From: a virus
Taxonomy: Duplodnaviria > Heunggongvirae > Uroviricota > Caudoviricetes
Reading direction: 5' to 3' (one strand)
Length of the DNA stretch: 27,388 nt
IMG/VR virus record: IMGVR_UViG_2563366848_000006
In this document: piece by piece, positions 3,955 through 27,388 of the stretch
How the letters are laid out: each line of letters begins with the position of its first letter
Numbering within the stretch: position 1 is the stretch's first letter
Notes under the pieces: model-generated
What the model was told of the DNA's origin: nothing
Databases searched by the model: none
The model's input: the letters and a program-made list of their open reading frames with translations, nothing else
Made by a program: the position numbers and the translations under genes

Positions 3955-4188
3955 ATGTCAACGAAGAACAGAACCCGCAGAACAACAACCCGCAACATCC
4001 GCTTTCCTAACCAAATGATTGAACAAATTAACATCGCTCTTGAGCAAAAAGGGTCCGGGAATTTCTCAGCCTGGGTCATTGAAGCCTGCCGCCGGAGACT
4101 GTGCTCAGAAAAAAGAGTTTCTTCTGAAGCAAACAAAGAAAAGAGTGACATTACTGAATTGCTCAGAAAACAGGTCAGACCAGATTGA
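3955..4188 (+). CDS. Small ribbon-helix-helix-like DNA-binding protein (77 aa), ynfO-like
   Basis: ORF track 77 aa; basic N-terminal tail (KNRTRRTTTR) then RNIRFPNQMIEQINIALEQKGSGNFSAWVIEA consistent with a beta-strand/helix/turn/helix RHH fold; position next to nohA matches the K-12 Qin gene order as I recall it. Confidence 0.6.
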   Translation: MSTKNRTRRTTTRNIRFPNQMIEQINIALEQKGSGNFSAWVIEACRRRLCSEKRVSSEANKEKSDITELLRKQVRPD

Positions 4189-4245
4189 AGCAATTTAGAT
4201 AATCGTGCAGACTACGCCCCCTCATATCACATGGAAGGTTTATCT

Positions 4246-4656
4246 ATGGATCAGGTAGTCATTTTTAAACAAATATTCGATAAAGTTCGAAACGATTTAA
4301 ACTATCAATGGTTTTATTCTGAGCTAAAACGTCACAATGTCTCACATTACATTTACTATTTAGCCACAGAGAATGTTCATATTGTATTAAAAAATGATAA
4401 TACAGTGTTATTAAAGGGCCTAAAAAACATTGTGTCTGTCAAATTTTCAAAGGATAGGCATCTTATAGAAACGACCTCTAATAAGCTGAAATCCAGAGAG
4501 ATCACATTTCAGGAATACAGAAGAAACCTTGCTAAAGCAGGAGTTTTTCGGTGGGTTACAAATATCCACGAACAAAAAAGATATTACTATACCTTTGATA
4601 ATTCATTACTATTTACTGAAAGCATCCAGAAAACTACACAGATCTTACCACGCTAA
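4246..4656 (+). CDS. Hypothetical protein, ydfO-like (DUF1398-type), ~136 aa
   Basis: ORF track 4231-4656; start more likely the second ATG at 4246, preceded by GGAAGG. AT-rich, N/Y/K-rich composition; 57 bp downstream of the RHH gene on the same strand. Confidence 0.6.
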
Positions 4657-4761
4657 ACCATAACGTCCGGCTTCTCTCACTCCTGAGCCGGACTGCATTG
4701 GTTTAATAAAAACCATCAACAATTGTGATTTAGATATTCGGAACCATTCAAATATAACAAA

Positions 4762-4788
4762 ACCCCGTAAAAACGAGGTTTATGGATA
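4762..4788 (-). terminator. Putative rho-independent terminator downstream of gnsB-like gene
   Basis: Minus strand reads aaacctcg-ttttta-cggggttt followed by a T-rich run (tgttatattt); one wobble/mismatch in the stem. Confidence 0.35.
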
Positions 4789-4807
4789 AATTTTATTATT
4801 GAATACA

Positions 4808-4984
4808 TCAGATTAAATTAATCTTGACATCATAGCTTTCAAGACCCGTCATTTTTTCCCGTGCGGTAAACTGAATACTGGTAACTTCTTTCCCGGTCTT
4901 TTTCTTAAGTTCAATAATTTTTTTTGTTATATATTCAGAAATATCTGCTTCTGCTTTTGTTTTTAAGTTTTCAATATTCATCAT
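4808..4984 (-). CDS. gnsB: GnsA/GnsB-family small protein (~57 aa)
   Basis: Self-translated minus-strand ORF (below the 60-aa track cut-off): MMNIENLKTKAEADISEYITKKIIELKKKTGKEVTSIQFTAREKMTGLESYDVKINLI, recognised as the GnsA/GnsB family. Confidence 0.7.
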   Translation of the reverse strand: MMNIENLKTKAEADISEYITKKIIELKKKTGKEVTSIQFTAREKMTGLESYDVKINLI

Positions 4985-5152
4985 TTCCTCTTTTAGTCTG
5001 TTATGACTTTCCAGTTACACAGTAAGTCGATTATATGGTGCAAACGTGTAAAAGATAAGATGAAACATCGCAATAATCAACATACGATAGTCTAAATTTT
5101 ACACAAACAGACAAAGAGAATTTTCCTGAATTATCAATGCAATAGCATCAAA

Positions 5153-5383
5153 TCAACTCAAGAGCCTTATTGCTGCTTCCAGAATTTCTTCTGAAGTAAC
5201 ATGTCGATCCGCGGCTACATAAATGACTTTATGATCTCCGGTCAGAGATGGAAACCCTGCGGCCATTACAGTAAGGTGTGTTTTTTCGCCATTTGGATAT
5301 TCACGCATGATGGTGTTAACTCCAGTCATCGCTGGCACTACCACTGCTGGTTCAGAGTTAAAAAAAACTATGATTTTTTTCAT
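5153..5383 (-). CDS. Hypothetical small protein (~76 aa)
   Basis: ORF track 5153-5425 begins at a TTG; first ATG gives MKKIIVFFNSEPAVVVPAMTGVNTIMREYPNGEKTHL... No clear Shine-Dalgarno; function unknown. Confidence 0.45.
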   Translation of the reverse strand: MKKIIVFFNSEPAVVVPAMTGVNTIMREYPNGEKTHLTVMAAGFPSLTGDHKVIYVAADRHVTSEEILEAAIRLLS

Positions 5384-5654
5384 GATGTTACCGTAGTATG
5401 TGAGTATCCATCGAATAGACACCAAGCAAAAAAGCTCCCGAAGGAGCCTTCATTTTCACTTTTTTAAATCCAACGACAGACGGCTGGCATTTAAGTATTG
5501 TGAAATATTATCAAATGTAATCATCATTGATTTACAAAAGATACATTTTGCCCCGAAAGGATTCATGTCAGAAACATCAAAAGATGATGTTCTATACTGG
5601 GAACCATGACAACACGGGCATCTAAAGTGAATATGGTTTGTAATATTGTCTACC

Positions 5655-5867
5655 TCAAAGCGCCACTACATGAACAGCGGCAGGACCTTTAGGTCCGTTC
5701 TCAATACCAAATTCAACTTCCTGATTCTCAGTTAATGTTTTAAAATCGTTGCTCTGAATTGCTGAGAAATGGACAAACACATCTTTGCTGCCATCTTTCG
5801 GCGTGATGAAACCAAAACCTTTTTCAGGGTTAAACCATTTCACTAAACCAGTCATTTTGTTAGACAT
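5655..5867 (-). CDS. cspI: Cold-shock protein, CspA family (70 aa), cspI-like
   Basis: [70 protein letters not shown]: canonical CspA-family RNP motifs (KWFN..KGFGFI, VFVHF); position matches cspI in Qin. Long AT-rich 5' leader 5868-6229. Confidence 0.85.
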
Positions 5868-6229
5868 AATTATTACCTTTTGAAGAAATTAGCCCTTGGG
5901 CAGAATGGTCCGAAAAAAAATATCAGAGAGAAAAACCAACAAGGAAATCTCAAGAGGTACAAATAATAAAATTATAACAATGACTGCTTCAGATAAATTT
6001 GTAACAAACCAGAACACCATTAACGCATGATTAACCACCCATAGCAAGGATTACTTTTGTAAAGAAAAACACAGCAATGAAAGAATAGCTTTATTTATTA
6101 ATAAAACGTGTCATTCTGATTAAGACCTTTTATCTTACCCTTAAGATTTCAGGAATTTTGGCTCATGGAAGAGTCCTTTTTATTTAAATTTTACATTCCG
6201 CGATGTAAATGTTCCGATTTAATATTACC

Positions 6230-8262: not shown

Positions 8263-8538
8263 TGTGGTGCTTTTTGTGGGAGTCATCCACTTACGCACTT
8301 TGTTTTGCCATGCCAGCAGTTAGCTTCTGCTGTAAAACTATTCATGCAGCAAACCTGCACTTCACCACAATGGTTAGCATACTTTTCCTGATTAAGATTT
8401 TGCCAAATATGCTAGCCATTGTTTCATGTATTGGACCTCCTTACTTTTTATTAAAGAGATCCAATATTCACTACTCTGTCCGTATCTCTACTCAGGCATC
8501 AGCCTTCTTCGTTATCGTATACAGACGAGCGATGAATT

Positions 8539-8754
8539 TTAATCAGTAATGATGACATTTGCTGCTGCAGGACCTTTAGCACCACTCTCTATAGAGAAGG
8601 TAACCTTTTGACCTTCAAATAAGGTTCGATAATTATCATTCTGAATCGCAGAAAAATGCACAAACACATCTTTACTACCATCAACAGGAGAAATAAAGCC
8701 GAAACCTTTATCAGCGTTAAACCATTTTACTAAACCAGTCATTTTATTTGACAT
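8539..8754 (-). CDS. cspB: Cold-shock protein CspB-like (71 aa)
   Basis: [71 protein letters not shown]; CspA family, recognised as CspB; long 5' leader 8755-9050. Confidence 0.9.
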
Positions 8755-9054
8755 TCTACATTCCTTAACTTGAGCCTTTCGGCATAAATGGTTTGCATAA
8801 CAGAAACGACTTCGTACTTAATTGGAGAGACTCAAAGAAGGAATAAGTGAATAACACCTGAAATGAGAACTGCTTTAGTAAACTACTTCGTATATCGTCT
8901 GTTCTTCAAACCGACGCAATCATTAACGCATAGTTGAACATATGAAGCAATGTTTATTTTAGACATCCAGCCATCTTCAACCCCATCAAAAAACTATAGC
9001 TTTCTTCAGGAACGTGTGTATAGTGCGCCAAGTTATCAGTATTAAGGAATTTTT

Positions 9055-12318: not shown

Positions 12319-12474
12319 TTACTCCTCAGGTTCGTAAGCTGTGAAGACAGCGACCTCCGTCTGGCCGGTTCGGATTCGTACCTCGCAGAGGTCTTTCCTC
12401 GTTACCAGTGCCGTCACTATGACGGTTAAACAGATGACGATCAGGGCGATTAACATCGCCTTTTGCTGCTTCAT
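12319..12474 (-). CDS. hokD: Hok-family type I toxin HokD (51 aa)
   Basis: Self-translated: MKQQKAMLIALIVICLTVIVTALVTRKDLCEVRIRTGQTEVAVFTAYEPEE; recognised as HokD (RelF). Below the track cut-off. Confidence 0.85.
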   Translation of the reverse strand: MKQQKAMLIALIVICLTVIVTALVTRKDLCEVRIRTGQTEVAVFTAYEPEE

Positions 12475-12545
12475 AGCCTGCTTCTCCTGTCAACGCAAAG
12501 CAGAAGTGTCACCTTCGGTGCGAAACAGAGATGTCATGCTTTGGT

Positions 12546-13974: not shown

Positions 13975-14373
13975 CGCCATCAGCCTTTTCTTTAAAGACA
14001 TATTATCTTTGTATCATTTCTGATAGTTAACATTACAAGATATAAGTAATGGACGCACTCCCAATTAGTCTATTTAAATCGCCACGAGTTTAACTGACAA
14101 CCCATGATCAATTATGAATTGCAACTATTTCTGTAGTCACTTTTGTGGGGACAGTCCACAAAACTGCCAACTTCCGCTTCTTGCTCTTAGCGGACATTAG
14201 CATAGGCTATTTACCATAACGCCTCATTACGCGCACCGCCCAGACTGACTCAGCGCGTTTCTGGCATATCCCCGGTAAAACAAGTAACAAACCACCCGAA
14301 AATGAACACCAGAAACGCGACTTAAGAATCTACCCTATGAATGGATATGCACTCAACCGAATCGATCTTGGTT

Positions 14374-15687
14374 TCAATCTTTTTTATCGGGATCAGGCTT
14401 CTTTTTAGGTAACTTCGGGGGCTTAACTTGCTGATGACTTTGCGTTCGGCGCGTAAGCCAGGGATGGTCAGCTTTAGGTTTAACATAGTATTTTGAGCGT
14501 AAATCAATACGGGCATTATCCACTCGTTCATGGACACTCTTTTCATCATCCAGTGGTATAGGCTCCGGGCCATCAACATACTTTTCCCAGCCCAGCGCTT
14601 TCCCGTCATACAGAACGTTAATTTCACCGTCAAAGTTCTCGCATACAGTAACAACCGAATGCCTAAGTCGATATCCCCGGCCCTCACTGCGTACCTGAAA
14701 CGCACTGCTTTTGTACTGGAAAGTGAGATTTTTAGACAGAACGCGCTTCGCCTGTAGGCTGAAGATATAACCCAGTTCCTCTTCAGAATGGTGCACATCA
14801 AGATGAGCATTATCAGTAGTACGAGGCGACGTAGCGAACCGGTTGTTATAGGCTTCAATAAAGGTCGGCAACCATGCATTTGCTGTTTCAATATCACTGA
14901 TATTCTGAAGCCGCATTTCTTTGACCAGCCTGTCCTGTAGTGTCTGATTGGCGCGCTCTACCCGCCCTTTTGCCTGCGGGCTGTTGGCATGGATTGGCTC
15001 GATGCCCAGTGTCTTTATCGCACGAGTGAACTGGGTCAGCTCACCTTCCCGCTCTGGGTTATTTACCCTGAATATACTGTGTCTATCAGAGTAGAGAGCG
15101 AGCGGTACGCCATGATCATTAAGGTAACCCCGGAGGGTTTCCATGTAAGCCCGGGTTGTTTCAGCAGGCACAAAACGCAACGCCATCAACGCACTGGTGG
15201 CATCATCAATGAAAACGATCAGTGTACATCTGGGGCCTCGGTTTTCAAACCAGTCATGAGGTGAGCCATCAATCTGGATCAGTTCACCGTAAGATGGTCG
15301 TCGCATGCGGCGTTGATATATACGGGCAATTTTACGACGGCGTTCACGCCATAACCCCTCTTCTATCATCCACTTTCTGAGAGTTTCAACGGATAAAGAT
15401 AAACCGTGTATCTCGCGCAATTTTTCGCACGCAAACGTAGGTCCAAAATCAGCGTAACGGCCTTTGAGGAGTGAAATTACTGTTGCTCTGAATTCAGTAG
15501 AAAAGGAATTATTAGGACGCTTTCCACGTCGGTGGGAAACCAGACCAGAAGGCCCTTCATTTCTATACCGTTGCACCAGACGTTTAACCTGCCGAATAGA
15601 AATGCCAATGCGTGCCGCAGCTTGTTCCTGAATAATCTGAAGTCGGTGGAGTTCCTTATGACTCATCGTAACAGTCTCTTTGATCAT
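14374..15687 (-). CDS. DDE-type integrase/transposase-like protein (437 aa) with N-terminal HTH and rve-like catalytic core (IS481/ISNCY-like; possibly the intact form of K-12 intK/ydfW)
   Basis: ORF track 437 aa; HTH-like N-terminus (IGISIRQVKRLVQRY), candidate catalytic acidic residues (IQIDGS, FIDDAT, LYSDRHS) and ...SPQAKGRVERANQTLQDRL typical of the integrase core domain. Element termini not identified. Confidence 0.8.
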   Translation of the reverse strand: MIKETVTMSHKELHRLQIIQEQAAARIGISIRQVKRLVQRYRNEGPSGLVSHRRGKRPNNSFSTEFRATVISLLKGRYADFGPTFACEKLREIHGLSLSVETLRKWMIEEGLWRERRRKIARIYQRRMRRPSYGELIQIDGSPHDWFENRGPRCTLIVFIDDATSALMALRFVPAETTRAYMETLRGYLNDHGVPLALYSDRHSIFRVNNPEREGELTQFTRAIKTLGIEPIHANSPQAKGRVERANQTLQDRLVKEMRLQNISDIETANAWLPTFIEAYNNRFATSPRTTDNAHLDVHHSEEELGYIFSLQAKRVLSKNLTFQYKSSAFQVRSEGRGYRLRHSVVTVCENFDGEINVLYDGKALGWEKYVDGPEPIPLDDEKSVHERVDNARIDLRSKYYVKPKADHPWLTRRTQSHQQVKPPKLPKKKPDPDKKD

Positions 15688-16021
15688 GAAAAATCCCCCA
15701 GAGAATTGTCTGGGGACATTTTAGAATGGTTCAAAGGGGACATTACAGCTTGGTGTTAACAATAGCCTGCTTCTCCGTGCCTTTCGGCACGTAAGAGGCT
15801 AACCTACATGTGTCTAGCATGAAATTGGCCTCAGATTAATGTTAAGCGTCTTGCAGGACGCGTAATGTTAACTGGGGCTTTTCTCTATCTGCCGTTGGTG
15901 TCCATGCCCGAGGCAGATAGCCTCAAGCACCCGCAGTCATTCTACTTAACTAAGATTTCCCCGCAAACCGTTTTTGTCCAGCACAGTAAATATCCAACTA
16001 AACCAATGGAGTTCGCTGTAT

Positions 16022-16201
16022 TTACCGCCAGTATTCAATGCACATGACCGCCATGAACACCCCTAAAAAAAGGGCATTTATATATCCAAATATTAATATC
16101 AAAACATCAACTTTTTCCATATACCTTGCTGTGAAGATGATGGGCATACATGATGCGAACAACCAGAACGCAACAAACAAAAACTGCAATGCGTTTTTCA
16201 T
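16022..16201 (-). CDS. Candidate small two-TM membrane protein (~59 aa) in an AT-rich island
   Basis: ORF track 16022-16240; internal ATG at 16199-16201 preceded by AGGAGG gives MKNALQFLFVAFWLFASCMPIIFTARYMEKVDVLILIFGYINALFLGVFMAVMCIEYWR (two hydrophobic helices). Confidence 0.4.
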   Translation of the reverse strand: MKNALQFLFVAFWLFASCMPIIFTARYMEKVDVLILIFGYINALFLGVFMAVMCIEYWR

Positions 16202-16455
16202 TATTCCTCCTACAATCAATGTGCAATTACATTTAAACACACCTCAATTTGGCCGGACATATAAATATCTAAACCAGAAAAAATCACTTACATAGCGTTA
16301 CAAACTCTTTAGTCTAAAGGTTCATCGTAAAACATTCCCCATACTTATCAGTCCGTTCCGCGCCAGGTAGCTCATTGCCTTATCTGGCAACCTGTAATCA
16401 GGTTTCCGCTTTTTCAGTTGGCTGGTCGTTTAACCGACATAGTTAATCCATTAAT

Positions 16456-16743
16456 CTAGTTGCCGGATGTTGGTGGATTTTCGCGTTTTAGTTGTTCATA
16501 AAAGTGCACAGCTTTAACCAGTTCTTCTGATGTAACTGGGACTGGTGAGGCAGTGAATAAGGCCTGAATTTGATAGTTCGGCCTGTCGTTACAATCCTCT
16601 TTTTTCGGTACATATTTCCAGTCACCAGACCACTACTTCCCCTGAAAGTCCGTAACGCCTTTTTTCACGTAGCGATATCGCCATGCCACTGGTTTTGCTT
16701 GCCCCGCCGTTTCATGCCCTTCCTGATAATTAATCTCGCTCAT
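16456..16743 (-). pseudogene. Possible gene remnant interrupted by an in-frame amber codon (36 aa + TAG + 58 aa)
   Basis: Self-translated: MSEINYQEGHETAGQAKPVAWRYRYVKKGVTDFQGK*WSGDWKYVPKKEDCNDRPNYQIQALFTASPVPVTSEELVKAVHFYEQLKRENPPTSGN; the frame stays open 58 codons past the TAG at 16633-16635. Relies on my reading of the text. Confidence 0.25.
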
Positions 16744-17353
16744 TCATCGCCCCACTCATCACAATATGCTTCGACCGGAGTTTTTCCCGCTTCATAGTCA
16801 TCACGCTAGGATTCGACATCAGCAGCACTTCCACCGCGTAACTCACCATAGTCCATTAATAGTTCATCCCGCTCTTCAAAACTGATGTTATATTTAGCTG
16901 AACAAAAATCAGCCACTTTGTTCTTCCTCATCGTCTTTTATTTCGTGGTATGAGTAATTGCAGTAGTTAAAGAAAATTTCTTATGCTCCGTCATGAATTT
17001 CCTCAGGTGTTGCGTCATCGTCCACTTCGAATACATCCTCAAAATCTCCACCAGCTATTCCCGTTTCAATAATAATTTTGAACTTTCGCATTTCACTACC
17101 GCCCTTTCGGGCGGCCTCCTGATGTTCTGAGGGTGCAGAAATCCATCCGGTTAAGGATTAAATTTTATTTACAGAACTGAATTTAATTATTCAGATATAC
17201 GTATCTGTAGCCTTACGAATCTACTCACTGGATGCCTCTTTCATAAAAATAATCCAGTGGGTTTTATCGTTTTTTCCCTGTTCGTTGACAGATAACAGGT
17301 TTTCTGTCTGTCAGTGCCAGAATCTGGCTTACCGGTATTTGCGTTTCATTCCA

Positions 17354-17710
17354 TTAAAAAATCAGAACGCCGTGCGGCCTCAACACCCGAAAGGCTTCTT
17401 TAAATCTCTGTCGCGAATCATCACGCCAGGCATCTTTATTCAGCCGTCCATATTTCTTTCCCATCCAGGCGTTATCACCAACACTCTCAAGATGCGGAGG
17501 GTCTAATACAACCATCGAAAAAGATGCGTCTGCAAATGATAATGCACGAAAATCTGCGATAATGTCAGGGCTGATAATCAAGCGTCTCCCATTGCGTAAT
17601 GTGTATCCTTCTTTTCTGATATCGCTGAATATCGCCCGTTCGTCAGACTTATCGAACCAGAACATGCGGCTGCCACAGCACATATCAAGAATGGTTGCCG
17701 GTGCACTCAC
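17354..17710 (-). pseudogene. Truncated DNA (amino-)methyltransferase-like ORF (118 aa: SAM-binding motif plus DPPH catalytic motif, C-terminal part missing)
   Basis: ORF track 118 aa with ILDMCCGSR (motif I-like) and VVLDPPH (motif IV DPP[YFH]); ends right after the expected beta-strand GVLIF. The same frame continues a further 29 codons after the TAA stop. Confidence 0.45.
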
Positions 17711-18129
17711 TGCGCCACGTCCTGAAAATTACCCTGATAGAAAGCCAGTATGCGCTGCATAACTTCGCTCTTCCGGCACTCGCGACAGATTATGTTTAGG
17801 CGACTGTCGTAGCGACGTATTTCTCCGTCAGGTGATGACCAGATAAGGTCCGGATCAACCACAGCAGGTTTCTTCACCTTTGCCCTCGAGAGTTTTTTGC
17901 GGGCGTTTTGCCAGTCCTTACGCGCCTGTTCAGAGGGGAATAACCCGTAGCCGGAGTTGTATACATCGCCACTGGCTACCAGCTCTCTGGCAAGAACGCT
18001 CATCAGATATCTAGTCGCACCTGTTTTAGCTTCCAGTTGCCGTAACGTCTCACGGCCGCTCTGGCGCACGAGTTCCACCACCTGCCATTTAATTTTTTCC
18101 CGCTCTTCTTGTGTAAAAACTTTTGCCAC
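17707..18129 (-). CDS. Hypothetical protein (140 aa), replication-region gene
   Basis: ORF track 140 aa MAKVFTQEEREKIKWQVVELVRQSGRETLRQLEAKTGATRY...; 4-bp overlap with the downstream methyltransferase-like ORF. Confidence 0.55.
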   Translation of the reverse strand: MAKVFTQEEREKIKWQVVELVRQSGRETLRQLEAKTGATRYLMSVLARELVASGDVYNSGYGLFPSEQARKDWQNARKKLSRAKVKKPAVVDPDLIWSSPDGEIRRYDSRLNIICRECRKSEVMQRILAFYQGNFQDVAQ

Positions 18130-18169
18130 AAGTCCCCCTTAAAATTACCTCATGACCTGAAATCAACAC

Positions 18170-19189
18170 TTATCCTCTGAAACCAGGCGGAATTTCTGTA
18201 TCCGGTTCAGAAATATGATTAACACAACGCTGTACAGGTGAACGTCCCAGGCGGATGACCAGTTCGTCCCATTTTTCGCGGAGCTTTGACGGGCTCATGA
18301 TGTTTTTTACCCAGAATGGATCTCGCTGAACCCGACCAAACATTTCGCAAATTTGTCTGTGGCTTCTGCCATCCAGCATCCGCATTGTGCGCACGTCATT
18401 GGCCCAGGCAGTCCAGTTAGGCTCTTTTGGTCGCATGATCTCGCCATCATCACTGGCTGCCTGTTCGTAGAGACCCACGATCCGCCCCCAGATCCACTGC
18501 GCACACGCCAAATCCTCCCTGCTACCCCACTGGCGTTTTTTCGCACTAAACACAACCGCGTCGGAGTTCCGGGTTAAAAAATCCTGTTCAGTCGTCTGCG
18601 GGTCCGGTTGCGAAGCTTCCGGACGAAAAGTGTTTTTATTCTCTGTAGTAATCTCTGTTGTATTCTCTGTAAGATCATCAGGCCATTTTGACCCGATGAC
18701 ATTGGGTCGTTTTGAACCAATGGAGCGTTTCATTTTGACCTCTTCCATCGTGTCATTTTGACCTGATGGAGCGGCGCATTTTGAACCGATGGATTCGCTC
18801 AATTTGCCACCATCTAAAAGCTCGCTCCCATAGTTGATCGTGTAGAAATTGGTCATATCGCGCTTTGATTTATTGAGCTTTTCACAACGCAAAAGCCCCA
18901 GCGTTTTCAGACTTGCAAACGCGCGCTTTAACGTTGACTCTGACCAGAATGGGAACTGTTCCAGCCATTGTTCCGTTGTGTTATAAATCCAGCGAACACC
19001 ATCACATTCCATGCCGGAGTTGGTATCTCTCAACCAGTAGTGCAGTTGTTGCAAAACAATGGCTTCGTTTAAGCCAATTTTCATTGCCAGCTGCGTGTTT
19101 ATAACCAGTGGGCGTTCAGCAAAAAGAAGGCTCATAATTCCATCCAGCTTTTTGTTGGTATTGCTGTCGATACGCAAGTTTGAAAGCAA
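18170..19189 (-). CDS. Putative replication initiator (O-like replisome-organiser N-terminal domain); true start may be Met19 at ~19135
   Basis: ORF track 339 aa; N-terminal segment MSLLFAERPLVINTQLAMKIGLNEAIVLQQLHYWL resembles phage replication-initiator winged-helix N-termini; position right after the cro-like dicC and the 173-aa gene. Confidence 0.55.
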   Translation of the reverse strand: MLSNLRIDSNTNKKLDGIMSLLFAERPLVINTQLAMKIGLNEAIVLQQLHYWLRDTNSGMECDGVRWIYNTTEQWLEQFPFWSESTLKRAFASLKTLGLLRCEKLNKSKRDMTNFYTINYGSELLDGGKLSESIGSKCAAPSGQNDTMEEVKMKRSIGSKRPNVIGSKWPDDLTENTTEITTENKNTFRPEASQPDPQTTEQDFLTRNSDAVVFSAKKRQWGSREDLACAQWIWGRIVGLYEQAASDDGEIMRPKEPNWTAWANDVRTMRMLDGRSHRQICEMFGRVQRDPFWVKNIMSPSKLREKWDELVIRLGRSPVQRCVNHISEPDTEIPPGFRG

Positions 19190-19637
19190 TTGCTTTTTCT
19201 ATAAGTTCGTCAGTTTCACGATCCACTACGGCAGGATCAGCAAAAAGCAGTCCGGACTCCACCACATCGCCATATTCTTTGTTTAACCCGGCGATCATGC
19301 ACGTGATGCTTTTTCCGTCAGTAATTTCACGATACAACCTGAAATCATTAATCCGGATAGCCTCCATAATTGCAGGCACTAGCGCCGTGAACTTTTCACG
19401 CTTATCCCTGGTGTCGATAGCCTTCCAGCGTTCAAATATCTTCACTCGATTAACGCCAAGCGCTCGCTGATCAATCGCGCCACCTTCATATGTGACACGC
19501 TGAACATCGATGTTCGGGCGCTCTTTCAAAGCCCAGAATGCTTCAGTGATTAATATCGTCGCCTGCTCCTGTGTCATTCCTGGTCGACATATCCAGGCAT
19601 CCAGAGCCTCACGAGCCTGTTCAGGAGTGATTTTCAT
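19116..19637 (-). CDS. Hypothetical early protein (173 aa), ydfX-like position
   Basis: ORF track 173 aa MKITPEQAREALDAWICRPGMTQEQATILITEAFWALKERP...; first gene downstream of dicC. Confidence 0.55.
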   Translation of the reverse strand: MKITPEQAREALDAWICRPGMTQEQATILITEAFWALKERPNIDVQRVTYEGGAIDQRALGVNRVKIFERWKAIDTRDKREKFTALVPAIMEAIRINDFRLYREITDGKSITCMIAGLNKEYGDVVESGLLFADPAVVDRETDELIEKAIAFKLAYRQQYQQKAGWNYEPSFC

Positions 19638-19851
19638 TGTTCAACCGCCCCGCCCGCTTCGTCTTACGATATTCATCATAAACTTTGGGATCATACTGAA
19701 GCTCCCCGCCAGATGCCTCCTGTAGACGCATCGCGCGACCTTCGGGAACTAAATCCCCTTTCCAGCTATAAAGCGAAGCCAAACGAATACCTGCTGCTTG
19801 TGCAAGTTTTGTTTTTGAACCGAAATACAAAAGAGCGTCAGTTTTAAGCAT
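19621..19851 (-). CDS. dicC: DicC (Cro-like repressor, 76 aa)
   Basis: ORF track 76 aa MLKTDALLYFGSKTKLAQAAGIRLASLYSWKGDLVPEGRAMRLQEASGGELQYDPKVYDEYRKTKRAGRLNNENHS, recognised as DicC; divergent from dicA. Confidence 0.9.
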   Translation of the reverse strand: MLKTDALLYFGSKTKLAQAAGIRLASLYSWKGDLVPEGRAMRLQEASGGELQYDPKVYDEYRKTKRAGRLNNENHS

Positions 19852-21347: not shown

Positions 21348-22542
<1,195 letters not shown>

Positions 22543-22581
22543 TTAAGTGACAACCCCGCTGCAACGCCCTCTGTTATCAAT

Positions 22582-22639
22582 TTTCTGGTGACGTTTGGCG
22601 GTATCAGTTTTACTCCGTGACTGCTCTGCCGCCCTTTTT
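22582..22639 (+). ncRNA. dicF: DicF small regulatory RNA with intrinsic terminator
   Basis: Sequence TTTCTGGTGACGTTTGGCGGTATCAGTTTTACTCCGTGACTGCTCTGCCGCCC followed by TTTTT matches DicF as I recall it; lies between ydfC and dicB as in Qin. Confidence 0.85.
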
Positions 22640-22808
22640 AAAGTGAATTTTGTGATGTGGTGAATGCGGCTGAGCGCACGCGGAACAGTTAAAACCAAAA
22701 ACAGTGTTATGGGTGGATTCTCTGTATCCGGCGTTAATTGTTAACTGGTTAACGTCACCTGGAGGCACCAGGCACTGCATCACAAAATTCATTGTTGAGG
22801 ACGCGATA

Positions 22809-22997
22809 ATGAAAACGTTATTACCAAACGTTAATACGTCTGAAGGTTGTTTTGAAATTGGTGTCACTATCAGTAACCCAGTATTTACTGAAGATGCCAT
22901 TAACAAGAGAAAACAAGAACGGGAGCTATTAAATAAAATATGCATTGTTTCAATGCTGGCTCGTTTACGTCTGATGCCAAAAGGATGTGCACAATGA
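22809..22997 (+). CDS. dicB: DicB cell-division inhibitor (62 aa)
   Basis: Internal start of track ORF 22704-22997: MKTLLPNVNTSEGCFEIGVTISNPVFTEDAINKRKQERELLNKICIVSMLARLRLMPKGCAQ, recognised as DicB. Confidence 0.9.
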   Translation: MKTLLPNVNTSEGCFEIGVTISNPVFTEDAINKRKQERELLNKICIVSMLARLRLMPKGCAQ

Positions 22998-23185
22998 ATT
23001 CAGCATTTGTGCTTGTTCTGACAGTTTTTCTTGTTTCCGGAGAGCCAGTTGATATTGCAGTCAGTGTTCACAGGACAATGCAGGAGTGTATGACTGCAGC
23101 AACCGAACAGAAAATTCCCGGTAACTGTTACCCGGTCGATAAAGTTATTCACCAGGATAATATCGAAATCCCGGCAGGTCTTTAA
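22994..23185 (+). CDS. ydfD: YdfD (63 aa), small membrane/lysis-associated protein
   Basis: MNSAFVLVLTVFLVSGEPVDIAVSVHRTMQECMTAATEQKIPGNCYPVDKVIHQDNIEIPAGL; N-terminal hydrophobic segment; start overlaps the dicB stop (ATGA). Confidence 0.8.
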   Translation: MNSAFVLVLTVFLVSGEPVDIAVSVHRTMQECMTAATEQKIPGNCYPVDKVIHQDNIEIPAGL

Positions 23186-23277
23186 AACAGTTCCGTAATA
23201 AATATCCGGTTTCATTCTTATATGCCAGCAATGGCAGGGATTTGTTCATCCTTAAATCTGTCATGAGGTTAAAACAA

Positions 23278-25749
23278 ATGAGTAAAGTCTTTATTTGCGC
23301 CGCTATTCCTGACGAACTGGCAACAAGGGAAGAAGGCGCTGTGGCTGTAGCCACAGCCATTGAAGCTGGCGACGAACGCCGTGCTCGAGCAAAATTTCAC
23401 TGGCAATTCCTGGAACATTATCCGGCTGCTCAGGACTGCGCTTATAAATTTATTGTCTGCGAGGATAAACCTGGCATACCCCGCCCTGCCCTCGATTCAT
23501 GGGATGCTGAATATATGCAGGAAAACCGCTGGGATGAGGAGTCTGCTTCTTTTGTCCCGGTTGAGACTGAATCCGATCCGATGAACGTCACTTTTGGCAA
23601 GCTGGCCCCTGAAGTACAGAACGCTGTCATGGTTAAGTTCGACACATGTGAAAACATCACCGTTGATATGGTTATTAGCGCACAGGAATTGTTGCAGGAA
23701 GACATGGCAACATTCGACGGACATATCGTTGAAGCGTTGATGAAAATGCCAGAAGTTAACGCCATGTATCCGGAGCTTAAGTTGCACGCCATTGGGTGGG
23801 TTAAGCATAAATGTATTCCTGGTGCTAAATGGCCCGAAATTCAGGCAGAGATGCGCATCTGGAAAAAACGTCGCGAAGGTGAACGCAAGGAAACCGGAAA
23901 ATACACGTCTGTTGTTGATCTCGCCCGCGCCAGAGCCAATCAACAGTACACTGAAAATTCAACAGGAAAAATCAGCCCGGTCATTGCTGCCATTCATCGC
24001 GAATACAAGCAGACATGGAAAACACTGGATGACGAACTGGCCTACGCTCTCTGGCCTAGTGATGTGGATGCCGGAAACATTGACGGCAGCATCCATCGCT
24101 GGGCAAAAAAAGAAGTTATCGACAACGACCGCGAAGACTGGAAGCGTATCTCGGCATCAATGCGCAAACAGCCTGATGCCCTTCGCTACGACCGCCAAAC
24201 TATTTTTGGCCTTGTCCGTGAGCGTCCGATCGACATTCACAAAGATCCCGTAGCACTGAACAAATATATCTGCGAATACCTGACGACAAAGGGCGTGTTT
24301 GAGAATGAAGAAACAGACCTGGGCACTGTTGATGTTCTCCAGTCATCAGAAACACAAACTGATGCAGTGGAAACTGAGGTATCTGATATCCCAAAAAATG
24401 AAACCGCGCCGGAAGCTGAACCATCTGTAGAGCGTGAGGGGCCGTTCTATTTCCTCTTCGCAGATAAGGACGGAGAAAAATACGGTCGCGCAAACAAACT
24501 CTCTGGTCTGGATAAGGCACTGGCTGCTGGCGCCACTGAAATCACAAAAGAAGAATATTTTGCCCGAAAAAATGGCACATACACGGGCTTACCGCAAAAT
24601 GTAGATACCGCTGAAGATTCAGAACAACCAGAGCCGATAAAAGTTACCGCTGACGAAGTAAACAAAATTATGCAGGCAGCCAATATCAGCCAGCCTGACG
24701 CCGATAAGTTGCTTGCTGCATCACGTGGTGAATTTGTTGAAGGGATTAGTGACCCGAATGATCCGAAATGGGTTAAGGGGCTCCAGACCCGCGATTCTGT
24801 GAACCAGAACCAGCATGAATCGGAACGGAACTACCAAAAAGCGGAACAAAACAGTCCAAATGCGTTACAAAACGAGCCAGAAACGAAACAGCCTGAACCA
24901 GTAGCGCAACAGGAAGTGGAAAAAGTCTGCACCGCCTGCGGTCAGACCGGCGGCGGCAACTGCCCTGATTGTGGCGCGGTGATGGGCGACGCAACATACC
25001 AAGAAACATTCGATGAAGAGTATCAGGTTGAAGTTCAGGAAGATGATCCGGAGGAAATGGAAGGCGCTGAACATCCACACAAGGAGAACACTGGCGGCAA
25101 TCAGCATCACAATAGCGATAATGAAACTGGCGAGACGGCAGATCACCCAATTAAGGTGAACGGTCATCGCGAAATCACATCCACCAGCAGGACGTGTGAC
25201 CATCTAATGATCGACCTTGAAACCATGGGAAAAAATCCTGATGCCCCGATCATCTCAATAGGTGCAATATTTTTCGATCCGCAAACCGGAGATATGGGAC
25301 CGGAATTTAGTAAGACTATCGATCTGGAAACTGCTGGCGGAGTCATTGATCGGGACACCATTAAATGGTGGCTTAAGCAATCACGCGAAGCGCAATCTGC
25401 CATTATGACCGATGAAATCCCGTTAGATGATGCACTGTTACAATTGCGAGAATTTATCGACGAAAACTCCGGTGAATTTTTTGTTCAGGTTTGGGGAAAT
25501 GGAGCCAACTTCGACAACACGATTTTGCGCCGTTCATACGAACGGCAGGGGATCCCCTGCCCGTGGCGTTACTACAACGATCGCGATGTACGCACAATCG
25601 TTGAGCTGGGGAAAGCCATAGACTTCGATGCCAGAACGGCTATTCCATTCGAAGGTGAGCGCCATAATGCACTTGATGACGCCCGTTACCAGGCAAAATA
25701 CGTTTCAGTTATCTGGCAAAAACTGATCCCGAGTCAGGCTGATTCTTAA
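23278..25749 (+). CDS. Large exonuclease-like protein (823 aa; ydfE-like / 'exonuclease VIII'-type) with internal Cys4 zinc ribbon and C-terminal DEDDh 3'-5' exonuclease domain
   Basis: Track ORF 23242-25749; start chosen at MSKVFICAAIPDE (GAGG 9 nt upstream). C-terminal domain carries DEDDh motifs (MIDLETMG; WGNGANFD; HNALDDARY). Zinc-ribbon-like CTACGQTGGGNCPDCG. Long acidic, low-complexity middle region. Confidence 0.75.
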   Translation: MSKVFICAAIPDELATREEGAVAVATAIEAGDERRARAKFHWQFLEHYPAAQDCAYKFIVCEDKPGIPRPALDSWDAEYMQENRWDEESASFVPVETESDPMNVTFGKLAPEVQNAVMVKFDTCENITVDMVISAQELLQEDMATFDGHIVEALMKMPEVNAMYPELKLHAIGWVKHKCIPGAKWPEIQAEMRIWKKRREGERKETGKYTSVVDLARARANQQYTENSTGKISPVIAAIHREYKQTWKTLDDELAYALWPSDVDAGNIDGSIHRWAKKEVIDNDREDWKRISASMRKQPDALRYDRQTIFGLVRERPIDIHKDPVALNKYICEYLTTKGVFENEETDLGTVDVLQSSETQTDAVETEVSDIPKNETAPEAEPSVEREGPFYFLFADKDGEKYGRANKLSGLDKALAAGATEITKEEYFARKNGTYTGLPQNVDTAEDSEQPEPIKVTADEVNKIMQAANISQPDADKLLAASRGEFVEGISDPNDPKWVKGLQTRDSVNQNQHESERNYQKAEQNSPNALQNEPETKQPEPVAQQEVEKVCTACGQTGGGNCPDCGAVMGDATYQETFDEEYQVEVQEDDPEEMEGAEHPHKENTGGNQHHNSDNETGETADHPIKVNGHREITSTSRTCDHLMIDLETMGKNPDAPIISIGAIFFDPQTGDMGPEFSKTIDLETAGGVIDRDTIKWWLKQSREAQSAIMTDEIPLDDALLQLREFIDENSGEFFVQVWGNGANFDNTILRRSYERQGIPCPWRYYNDRDVRTIVELGKAIDFDARTAIPFEGERHNALDDARYQAKYVSVIWQKLIPSQADS

Positions 25750-25821
25750 TGTTCAACTGTCGCCGGTTGTGACTGGTATTCTGCAACCGGCGCTCGTCTG
25801 ATGTAAGAGATAAAGAAATCG

Positions 25822-26073
25822 ATGAGCGAAGTAATCATGATTGTCTCTCCCGGCAAATGGGTATCCGAAGAGCAGTTAATTGCGCTGAAAGGAATAAAAA
25901 AAGGTACGTTAAAAAAGGCCCGGGAAAAATCGTTTATGGAAGGAAGGGAATATAAGCATGTCGCTCATGACGGTATGCCATGGGATAACAGTCCATGCTT
26001 TTACAACCTGGAAGAAATTGATCGCTGGATTGAGCGCCAGGCATCAGCGAGACCAAGACGTCATCTTACTTGA
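25822..26073 (+). CDS. xis: Excisionase-like protein (83 aa)
   Basis: ORF track 83 aa; small basic protein immediately upstream of the integrase on the same strand, with a GREYKH motif reminiscent of excisionase-family DNA-binding proteins. Confidence 0.65.
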   Translation: MSEVIMIVSPGKWVSEEQLIALKGIKKGTLKKAREKSFMEGREYKHVAHDGMPWDNSPCFYNLEEIDRWIERQASARPRRHLT

Positions 26074-26107
26074 CTAAAAGCCACACTAACTAATGAGAGA
26101 AGTTGAA

Positions 26108-27388
26108 ATGAAATATCCGACAGGCGTGGAAAACCATGGAGGGAAATTACGTATCTGGTTTGTTTATAAAGACGTAAGAGTCAGGGAAAATCTGGGGGTT
26201 CCTGACACAGCAAAAAACAGGCGCGTTGCAGGTGAACTACGCTCCTCTGTTTGTTACGCAATAAAAACTGGTGTTTTCGACTATGCAAAACAGTTTCCCT
26301 CCTCACGCAATCTGGAAAAATTTGGTGAGGCCCGACAAGATTTAACCATAAAAGAACTGGCTGAAAAATTTCTGGCACTGAAAGAAACTGAAGTCGCCAA
26401 AACATCACTCAACACATACCGTGCCGTCATCAAAAATATCCTGAGCATAATCGGTGAAAAAAATCTTGCCTCATCGATTAATAAAGAAAAATTACTGGAG
26501 GTTCGTAAAGAGTTACTGACTGGATACCAGATCCCCAAAAGTAACTATATTGTTACACAACCAGGGAGATCGGCTGTAACTGTAAATAATTACATGACAA
26601 ATCTTAACGCCGTGTTCCAGTTTGGTGTTGATAACGGTTACCTGGCAGATAATCCGTTTAAGGGGATCTCGCCATTAAAGGAATCAAGAACCATTCCGGA
26701 TCCTCTTTCGCGGGAAGAATTTATCCGTCTTATCGATGCGTGCAGAAATCAGCAAGCAAAAAATTTATGGTGTGTTTCTGTTTATACTGGAGTTCGCCCT
26801 GGTGAGCTGTGTGCACTTGGATGGGAGGACATAGATCTGAAAAATGGAACAATGATGATCAGGAGAAATTTAGCAAAAGACCGTTTCACGGTACCAAAAA
26901 CACAGGCGGGAACCAATCGGGTCATTCATCTTATTAAGCCAGCAATCGACGCTCTCCGGAGTCAGATGACATTAACGAGACTGAGCAAAGAGCATATCAT
27001 TGATGTTCACCTCAGAGAGTATGGCAGAACAGAAAAACAAAAATGCACCTTTGTTTTTCAACCTGAAGTGTCAGCGAGAGTAAAAAATTATGGTGACCAT
27101 TTTACCGTTGACTCAATAAGGCAGATGTGGGACGCAGCGATAAAACGTGCCGGACTCCGCCATCGAAAATCATATCAGTCGAGACATACTTATGCCTGCT
27201 GGTCGCTGACAGCTGGTGCTAACCCGGCATTTATAGCAAACCAGATGGGCCATGCAGATGCGCAAATGGTATTTCAGGTATACGGAAAATGGATGTCTGA
27301 AAACAATAATGCACAGGTAGCTTTGTTAAATACACAGTTAAGCGAGTTTGCCCCAACCATGCCCCATAACGAAGCAATGAAAAATTAA
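26108..27388 (+). CDS. int: Tyrosine site-specific integrase (~426 aa)
   Basis: Track ORF 26093-27388; likely start MKYPTGVENHGGKLRIWF (GAGAGAAG upstream). C-terminal catalytic region has conserved R...HxxR...Y context (RHRKSYQSRHTYACW...QMGHADAQMVFQVYGKW), typical of lambda-family integrases (Rac IntR-like). Ends at the last base of the window. Confidence 0.9.
   Translation: MKYPTGVENHGGKLRIWFVYKDVRVRENLGVPDTAKNRRVAGELRSSVCYAIKTGVFDYAKQFPSSRNLEKFGEARQDLTIKELAEKFLALKETEVAKTSLNTYRAVIKNILSIIGEKNLASSINKEKLLEVRKELLTGYQIPKSNYIVTQPGRSAVTVNNYMTNLNAVFQFGVDNGYLADNPFKGISPLKESRTIPDPLSREEFIRLIDACRNQQAKNLWCVSVYTGVRPGELCALGWEDIDLKNGTMMIRRNLAKDRFTVPKTQAGTNRVIHLIKPAIDALRSQMTLTRLSKEHIIDVHLREYGRTEKQKCTFVFQPEVSARVKNYGDHFTVDSIRQMWDAAIKRAGLRHRKSYQSRHTYACWSLTAGANPAFIANQMGHADAQMVFQVYGKWMSENNNAQVALLNTQLSEFAPTMPHNEAMKN

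Follow-up and report, generated by a model that had tools for sequence, protein, structure and literature searches.

The replication genes between dicC and Q

The segment described here, positions 14374-19637, belongs to a 27,388-nucleotide sequence of a tailed phage (Caudoviricetes; IMG/VR record IMGVR_UViG_2563366848_000006), which is referred to below as the window. The segment lies between dicC and Q of a Qin-type lambdoid prophage and holds a gene for an O-type replication initiator that is not followed by a gene for a helicase loader. An earlier note on this DNA, made from the letters alone, had taken the segment for a decayed replication region and had suggested that the prophage is replication-defective despite intact packaging and lysis genes. 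All genes of the segment are on the minus strand. The first gene past dicC is a YdaT/CII-like gene, the 5' part of which is ydfX of K-12. The regulatory and replication features are as follows.

19621-19851, minus strand: dicC, a cro-like (P22-Cro-like) gene that precedes the YdaT-like gene
19116-19637, minus strand: YdaT-family CII-like regulator gene (Pfam PF06254; phrog_163, CII-like activator, E 5.5e-40)
18170-19135, minus strand: O-type replication initiator gene, 321 amino acids (aa) (E 1.3e-91 to positions 11-298 of 298 in phrog_391, 'replication initiation O-like')
18833-19135, minus strand: predicted N-terminal winged-helix DNA-binding domain of the initiator, residues ~1-101 (AlphaFold predicted local distance difference test score [pLDDT] of ~55-70)
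18684-18791, no strand assigned: putative origin with five iterons CATYGGKTCAAAATG on the gene strand (families D1 and D2 of the repeat search)
18634-18672, no strand assigned: A/T-rich stretch with two copies of TTKTATTCTCTGTA, a putative unwinding region (repeat family D5)
18254-18697, minus strand: the C-domain of the initiator, a homologue of the C-domain of lambda O, which overlaps the 3' end of the iteron-encoded linker
18173-18235, minus strand: C-terminal 21-residue tail of the initiator, VQRCVNHISEPDTEIPPGFRG (phmmer against the PDB DnaT chains 2ru8_A, 6aep_A, and 9zbt_D)
17707-18129, minus strand: DUF977 / LygF / 'Ren-like' gene, intact (Pfam PF06163, E 5e-29; phrog_142)

The DUF977 gene follows the initiator after a gap of 40 bp, and its product is 94% identical to LygF of vB_EcoS-640R1. 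Open reading frame (ORF), Pfam, and PHROG scans revealed no P, DnaC, or DnaB-like ORF between dicC and Q. A loader or helicase was likewise not found among the other early genes in PHROG and Pfam scans or in the annotation of Escherichia coli B379, whose chromosome contains the prophage. Downstream of the initiator there is no P-type loader gene of family PF06992, and the P signature described below is absent from the window. The ORFs, Pfam, PHROG, and the annotation thus bear out the description of an O-like initiator without a P/DnaC loader or helicase. DUF977 was considered as a hidden loader and judged unlikely, since it co-occurs with P in a related IMG/VR locus (L134) and with the DnaC-like YdaV in Rac.

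The initiator is full length, its homologues in Escherichia, Citrobacter, and Salmonella being 321 to 330 aa long; a possible alternative TTG start lies upstream at 19189. The body of the protein matched nothing in Pfam (E of ≤0.01) or NCBIfam, where the match is confined to the tail, and it was assigned through PHROGs and by direct comparison with lambda O. No Pfam family was reached at E of ≤0.01 in the N-terminal domain, including the lambda O N-terminal family Phage_rep_O. phrog_6493 matches residues 19 to 186, and a Foldseek search of the PDB with the N-terminal domain returned weak matches to the RepA_N-type plasmid initiators 4pql, 5kbj, and 4pt7 (E 0.01-0.04). As modelled, this domain appears to be a winged helix that is distinct from lambda O_N and weakly RepA_N/DnaD_N-like. 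The C-terminal domain is the best-modelled part of the protein (pLDDT 65-85), and Foldseek found no match for it in the PDB. By BLASTP, residues 147 to 294 align with residues 135 to 270 of lambda O (34% identity, E 1e-26), in the domain through which lambda O contacts P, and in tblastn the domain matches the O genes of lambda, DE3, and HK140.

The iterons are spaced by 23 to 24 bp inside the initiator gene, where they encode a repeated 'IGSK' linker that is predicted to be disordered in the AlphaFold model. Five of the six matches to the iteron pattern in the whole window fall within the 108 bp of 18684-18791. The A/T-rich stretch adjoins the iterons and has a GC content of 42 to 44%, compared with 54 to 59% in its flanks. 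This putative origin appears to have a lambda-type layout and looks intact. Some homologues of the initiator in E. coli (290 aa; P0138 and relatives) lack a block of 31 residues in the linker, corresponding to window positions ~18700-18790, and would have fewer iterons.

The arrangement can be compared with O and P of lambda. Both have iterons and an A/T-rich stretch within the initiator gene and a homologous C-domain in its product, both lie behind cro and cII, and in both a gene at the ren position comes next. They differ in that the window has no P and in that the N-terminal domain of its initiator is not of the lambda O_N family. The ends of the two proteins also differ: lambda O terminates in TDWIYGVDL, whereas the initiator of the window terminates in a DnaT-like IPPGFRG.

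The DnaT-like tail of the initiator

In the phmmer comparison, 15 of the 21 tail residues are identical to the C terminus of DnaT. The tail also matches positions 160 to 179 of the 179 positions of the NCBIfam DnaT model NF002770, at 16.2 bits against a cutoff of 201. The likeness is confined to the tail, and the initiator is not a DnaT orthologue. The shared motif, ...PD(S/T)xIPxGFRG-COOH, reads SEPDTEIPPGFRG in the window and SEPDSQIPPGFRG in DnaT. It is conserved in homologues of the initiator and predicted to be disordered by AlphaFold; the C-terminal segment of DnaT has been described as a highly flexible tail of 20 residues (PMC5778457).

The same ending occurs on other proteins, some of them with unrelated bodies. 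The O protein of SfII ends in ...SQIPAGFRG. That of vB_EcoS-640R1, otherwise unrelated to the initiator of the window, shares its last 20 residues with it at 95% identity. YdaU of Rac, a DUF1376 protein, ends in ...PDSAIPPGFRG, DnaT of the host ends in ...PDSQIPPGFRG, and outside the tail neither YdaU nor DnaT, a restart protein, is related to the initiator. In both Rac and the host, a gene for a DnaC-type ATPase (ydaV and dnaC, respectively) stands directly behind the gene with the tail, so that the dnaT-dnaC operon is laid out like ydaU-ydaV; the window has no such gene. In Rac, DUF977 (ydaW) comes after ydaU-ydaV, just as DUF977 comes after the initiator of the window. The motif itself varies (IPPGFRG, IPAGFRG, IPEGFRG, and IPSGFRG), and so do the genes behind it, which include PerC in SfII and P0158, a 147-aa ORF in Citrobacter, ydaV in Rac, and dnaC behind host dnaT. 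Initiators of several different PHROG families end in it. In the literature searched, no paper was found that mentions the tail motif, and none of relevance on DnaT together with YdaU or DUF1376 or on 'initiator-solo'.

A relative with P allowed a direct comparison. In locus L134, which has the same dicB/dicA/dicC/ydaT context, the homologue of the initiator is 75% identical and ends in ...DGWEDVL instead of GFRG; it is followed by a lambda P gene (PF06992) and then by DUF977 (L134 positions 4001-5697). The DNA homology between this locus and the window stops at the end of the C-terminal domain. The comparison with Qin-like phages that the earlier note had called for thus does yield a relative with P, but the version without P is not a simple deletion of it and ends in a C-terminal tail of another kind. 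P is also missing behind the GFRG-tailed homologues of E. coli and Citrobacter, and in HK140 a lambda-type O is found together with P. Homologous O C-domains bear two unrelated end peptides, one aromatic and acidic (TDWIYGVDL, DGWEDVL) in the presence of P and the other IPxGFRG in its absence. This suggests that the extreme C terminus of lambda O may be the contact for P.

The pairing of tail and loader was counted in 120 IMG/VR contigs with an ORF ending in IPPGFRG-stop and in 80 contigs with lambda P. The counts were made with degenerate DNA signatures over all loci fetched and are not full gene calls. The GFRG-stop pattern was present in 0 of 83 P-containing loci. All 83 carry the P signature ENGIT, which none of the GFRG-stop loci contains. 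A DnaC-type Walker A signature (GTGKNHLA) lies ~337 bp past the tail in 54 of the 120 viral tail loci and also in Rac, and in 47 of the 120 LygF starts 53 nt past the tail, as it does in the window. In this sample, the DnaT-type tail is accompanied either by a DnaC-type loader or by no loader, and P is never its partner.

Related phages, decayed accessory genes, and insertion sequences

The source of the window is a known type of prophage. Positions 1-25000 match the E. coli B379 chromosome at 100% identity, and a Qin-type lambdoid prophage is annotated there beside rspB. Its annotation comprises a complete lambda-like set of head, tail, lysis, and packaging genes and an early region with dicA/dicC, ydfABC, dicF, dicB, exonuclease, xis, and int. 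The region 14374-19637 occurs at a coverage of at least 80% in 272 of 5,426 complete E. coli genomes (~5%), and the best 20 of these 272 matches to the 5.26-kb region are all 100% identical.

The same DNA is present in PhiR42_1 (PV340562.1; 48.7 kb; host ECOR13), a phage of the collection of Brenes & Laub 2025. It is listed as an isolated temperate phage in its GenBank record and in the phage table of a later paper, which gives plaquing efficiencies for a temperate-phage panel from the source named there. PhiR42_1 and the window are at least 99.6% identical over 1-21348 and 22542-27388, and the sole large difference is an IS5 insertion sequence (IS) at 21349-22541 that is present in the window and not in the phage. 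Within 14374-19637 the two differ at 3 bases. Two of these (15241 and 15300) are in the transposase gene described below, where PhiR42_1 has a nonsense change at the position matching 15300 and the ORF of the window is open; the third (17137) is noncoding and falls between DUF7167 and what remains of the methyltransferase. Window and phage have the same ydaT-like gene, initiator, DUF977, and truncated methyltransferase, every premature stop recurs, the position of ISEsa1 is unchanged, and the initiator protein is 100% identical. No loader or helicase is annotated among the 76 coding sequences of PhiR42_1. None of the 3 differences falls in the ydaT-like, O-like, DUF977, or methyltransferase gene. 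The reading of the prophage as replication-defective is not supported. The earlier note had held that a loader or helicase elsewhere in the prophage would overturn that reading; none was found, yet its conclusion still fails, given PhiR42_1, the other loader-less phages, and the full-length initiator.

Those other phages have the loader-less order as well. The initiator is 99.4% identical to that of the window in HannyBb, which was isolated from bird faeces, and 98.1% identical in mEp460_ev081, from a study of infant-gut phages (PMC6969025). In SfII and mEp460_4F5 the initiators are 45 to 68% identical (68% in mEp460_4F5) and are followed by PerC-like and Dam genes, with no loader. The partial genome record of vB_EcoS-640R1 has the initiator and then LygF directly, without a loader. 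On database and paper evidence only, the O-only type thus occurs in phages that complete a lytic cycle, as PhiR42_1, HannyBb, mEp460_ev081, and SfII are deposited or listed as such.

The module type has also been described in a survey of lambdoid phages, in which phage LLS and 34 of the 314 phages (11%) encode only an O homologue (PMC12315714). Replication of this O-only type "is not yet understood" according to that paper, which has 0 occurrences of DnaT. Its O-only modules likewise have a single O homologue and no helicase or loader; the likeness is one of module description. For CI and Cro of LLS, the nearest counterparts are in mEp460_4F5.

A further relative is the cryptic Qin of K-12 MG1655. 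Its flanks are 100% identical to the window, and it shares the dicC/dicA immunity region, relBE-hokD, flxA, ydfU, and the Q-like ydfT. It differs by a clean deletion of window positions 14559-19357 (4.8 kb), which takes most of ISEsa1, the dead accessory genes, DUF977, the initiator with the origin, and the 3' part of the ydaT-like gene. Two stumps are left: ydfW corresponds to the 3' end of the transposase ORF of ISEsa1, and what K-12 keeps of the ydaT/CII-like gene, its 5' part, is ydfX. Since K-12 Qin is the sequence of the window minus 14559-19357, its initiator and origin were lost in one deletion.

Downstream of DUF977, the segment holds the following features, with ~1.1 kb of short ORFs between the methyltransferase ORF and the 72-aa ORF.

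17221-17710, minus strand: pseudogene of a class I S-adenosylmethionine-dependent methyltransferase (phrog_954 positions 52-165 of 229)
16912-17091, minus strand: small acidic gene of the DUF7167 type, interrupted by an in-frame TAA at 16981-16983 (phrog_1997; 'internal stop' in the annotation of the Prokaryotic Genome Annotation Pipeline [PGAP])
16743-16931, minus strand: 58-aa-type acidic gene with an in-frame TAG at 16806-16808 (comparison with vB_EcoS-640R1)
16322-16743, minus strand: remnant of the phrog_660 family with an in-frame TAG at 16633-16635 (phrog_660 positions 34-68 of 193)
16022-16240, minus strand: hydrophobic 72-aa ORF, intact and kept in related phages (identical-type ORF in IMG/VR locus L013)
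15761-15932, minus strand: antisense RNA sok together with the 5' leader of hok (104 bits to Rfam RF01794, model positions 1-157 of 157)
14168-15761, minus strand: ISEsa1 (IS1202 group, ISNCY family), with the transposase ORF at 14374-15687 (437 aa)

Four nonsense codons and one frameshift were found in four accessory genes. The methyltransferase ORF (17354-17710, 118 aa) ends where K119 is replaced by a TAA at 17354-17356, beyond which 29 codons are open, as the earlier note had said; its placing of the stop right after the DPPH motif was inexact, since DPPH is at residue 70 of 118 and the stop is 45 codons past the motif. Homologues have 157 to 167 aa, or ~248 aa in a longer form. Those of 157 to 167 aa go on '...LIFKWNETQIPVSQILALT...QRTGKNDKTHWIIF...' and also read '...LIFKWNETQ...QRTGKNDKTHWIIF...'. 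A full-length phrog_954 methyltransferase of ~160 aa was not found in the window. The ORF reported as split by an in-frame TAG is the phrog_660 remnant, which has the predicted 58 open codons past the stop and is annotated by PGAP as 'frameshifted; internal stop', and the one reported as split by a TAA is the DUF7167 gene, which is 88% identical across its stop to an intact 60-aa gene of vB_EcoS-640R1. Two lesions had gone unnoticed, namely, the TAG at 16806-16808, in a gene that is 83% identical across the stop to an intact 58-aa gene of vB_EcoS-640R1, and a frameshift in the methyltransferase near 17271-17275. Read errors were considered as the origin of the stops and rejected, the same sequence being present in many independent genomes, 100% identical ones among them, and in PhiR42_1. 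In the stretch 16633-17356, four successive small genes thus each have a single premature stop (TAA, TAA, TAG, and TAG) and there is a single frameshift, with the essential genes to one side intact.

The view of the segment as decayed holds for the four dead nin-equivalent genes and for the presence of an IS, but not for the initiator and putative origin, which are intact. Real decay is confined to the four accessory nin-equivalent genes. The 72-aa ORF at 16022-16240, which has no match in Pfam or PHROG, adjoins the hok/sok locus in related phages too, as in L013.

The 437-aa DDE gene of the earlier note is the transposase of ISEsa1. It matches NCBIfam NF033594 at 456 bits against a cutoff of 250 and is 97.9% identical to an annotated ISEsa1 transposase. 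Alignment with a plasmid copy of ISEsa1 from Enterobacteriaceae shows near-identical DNA along ~1.6 kb, interrupted by a few mismatches and a single gap of 27 bp. The gap is an in-frame deletion in the N-terminal helix-turn-helix region of the window copy, which has 437 aa and the plasmid copy 446 aa; in addition, the canonical right end seems to have other bases in its last few positions. The ORF is continuous, and PGAP splits it into 'ydfW' and a 'partial' transposase. In phages free of the IS, similarity to the window breaks off exactly at 15762. The left end of ISEsa1 (TGTTAAC...) abuts a 15-bp repeat at 15762-15776, and a matching repeat with an end resembling the right inverted repeat is found at 12473-12501, 1.7 kb beyond the canonical right end and beside hokD. 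No convincing inverted repeats directly flank the transposase gene, and no target duplication was seen around the plasmid copy in flanks of 1.2 kb.

The perfect 15-bp direct repeat, GGAGAAGCAGGCTAT, at 12473-12487 and 15762-15776 brackets a 3,274-bp block with ISEsa1, flxA, ydfV, relB, and relE. This block looks like a single insertion event that put relBE upstream of hokD (relF). The insertion, which starts at 15761, severed the hok ORF from the sok RNA and leader, the hokD ORF now being ~3.3 kb away; in HannyBb, the aligned hok/sok locus is uninterrupted.

The IS5 element at 21349-22541 lies between ydfC and dicB, 41 bp upstream of an intact dicF (22583-22634), and its transposase gene runs against the direction of the early-left operon. 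The element could isolate dicF, dicB, exonuclease, xis, and int from the early-left promoter, which makes it likelier than the replication module as a defect of this prophage. Elsewhere in the window, two full-length matches to the Rfam cspA thermoregulator (5628-6013 and 8523-8915) are located upstream of cspI and cspB, cold-shock genes of the prophage.

Proposed helicase loading by an O-only module

The segment is very probably the early-right operon of a Qin-type lambdoid phage with a working loader-less replication module, in which the DnaT-like tail of the initiator may have a loader-recruiting role. The absence of a loader is the usual state of this module type and not a loss. In order, the operon comprises dicC, the YdaT/CII-like gene, the O-type initiator with its origin, DUF977/LygF, the dead nin-equivalent genes, the small membrane ORF, and a hok/sok locus broken by the insertion that contains ISEsa1. 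The initiator would bind its iterons and open the A/T-rich stretch, and its DnaT-like tail would recruit either DnaB-DnaC or the restart primosome of the host, a role filled in lambda by the contact between O and P. Lytic growth would not require the dead genes or the IS.

A broader proposal is possible, and we put it forward tentatively. The tail shared by DnaT, the initiators of the Qin/PhiR42_1/SfII type and of the 640R1 type, and YdaU of Rac may be a portable docking peptide for helicase loading of the DnaC type. Tailed initiators would use a phage paralogue of DnaC where there is one and otherwise the host DnaB-DnaC complex or the restart primosome, and initiators with a tail of the lambda type would use P.

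Several points weigh against the working loader-less module. The case for this prophage is built from sequence and database records, and the viability of PhiR42_1 rests on two sources, its GenBank record and the phage table of the later paper. The prophage may be defective for another reason, because of the IS5 in its early-left operon. The counts of tail and loader come from pattern matching on loci that are not independent of each other; identity to lambda P is 98% or more in the 80 P loci, many of the IMG/VR contigs are E. coli prophages, and 18 of the 120 viral tail loci have neither the DnaC nor the LygF signature. The AlphaFold model of the initiator is of low confidence, with a mean pLDDT of 55. 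Finally, a 2026 paper on the preprimosome favours the N-terminal domain of DnaT, which is absent here, as the recruiter of DnaB/DnaC, and states that how DnaT recruits them is still unknown (PMC13377028).

Of the alternatives, the best surviving is that the GFRG tail has no function and marks a recombination joint between the initiator and LygF that is kept by mosaic exchange. The helicase would then be loaded otherwise, for example, by binding of DnaB/DnaC to the O C-domain or in a recombination- or transcription-dependent manner. The initiator of 640R1 fits the pattern of a mosaic boundary, as it shares just the last 20 residues (95%) with that of the window and is followed by a LygF that is 94% identical, and a C-domain of the lambda O type could itself contact host factors. 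A mere joint does not account well for a motif that is kept at the protein level while its residues vary, that stands ahead of quite different downstream genes, that is strictly absent where P is present, and that terminates several PHROG initiator families. We consider this explanation unlikely.

It is quite improbable that the loader is supplied in trans by a resident prophage, such as the DnaC-like YdaV of Rac, with the GFRG tail contacting DnaC paralogues and not host DnaC. YdaU of Rac does have the same tail and is followed by YdaV, a DnaC-type gene comes immediately after the tail in 54 of the 120 viral loci, and most E. coli strains have several lambdoid prophages. A helper would, however, be needed in each host of these phages, and SfII grows in Shigella while HannyBb and mEp460_ev081 were isolated on different hosts. 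Host dnaT itself adjoins dnaC, and host DnaC shares the Walker A signature of YdaV; on both grounds, host DnaC would be the simplest partner.

The explanation with the least left to support it, that the loader was lost by decay and that the prophage cannot replicate its DNA, can draw on the lack of a loader or helicase anywhere in the prophage, on the P-containing close homologue in the same context (L134), on the clearly decaying neighbouring genes, and on the derivation of cryptic K-12 Qin from this sequence, but it is already largely refuted, and very improbable, given a near-identical phage listed as isolated and temperate, the loader-less order of other phages, the 11% of surveyed lambdoid phages that are O-only, the 47 of 120 tail contigs that go straight to LygF, and a P-less initiator with a distinct conserved tail and no deletion scar.

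As a sequence and as a module type, the segment is already known: it is carried by a temperate phage that was isolated and deposited, and it recurs in ~5% of the complete genomes of E. coli. As a finding on the window it is ordinary. It does show how Qin of K-12 lost its origin and initiator, in one 4.8-kb deletion, and it cautions that 'no P gene' should not be read as a defect. It also offers a lead on two questions that recent papers call open, namely, how DnaB is loaded in O-only lambdoid phages (PMC12315714) and how DnaT is linked to DnaB-DnaC (PMC13377028). This lead lies in the tails: a DnaT-type tail strictly goes with a DnaC-type or absent loader, and a non-GFRG tail goes with P. If the tail is indeed a portable docking peptide, this would explain how the helicase is loaded in O-only phages and would mark the segment of DnaT that links the preprimosome to DnaB-DnaC.

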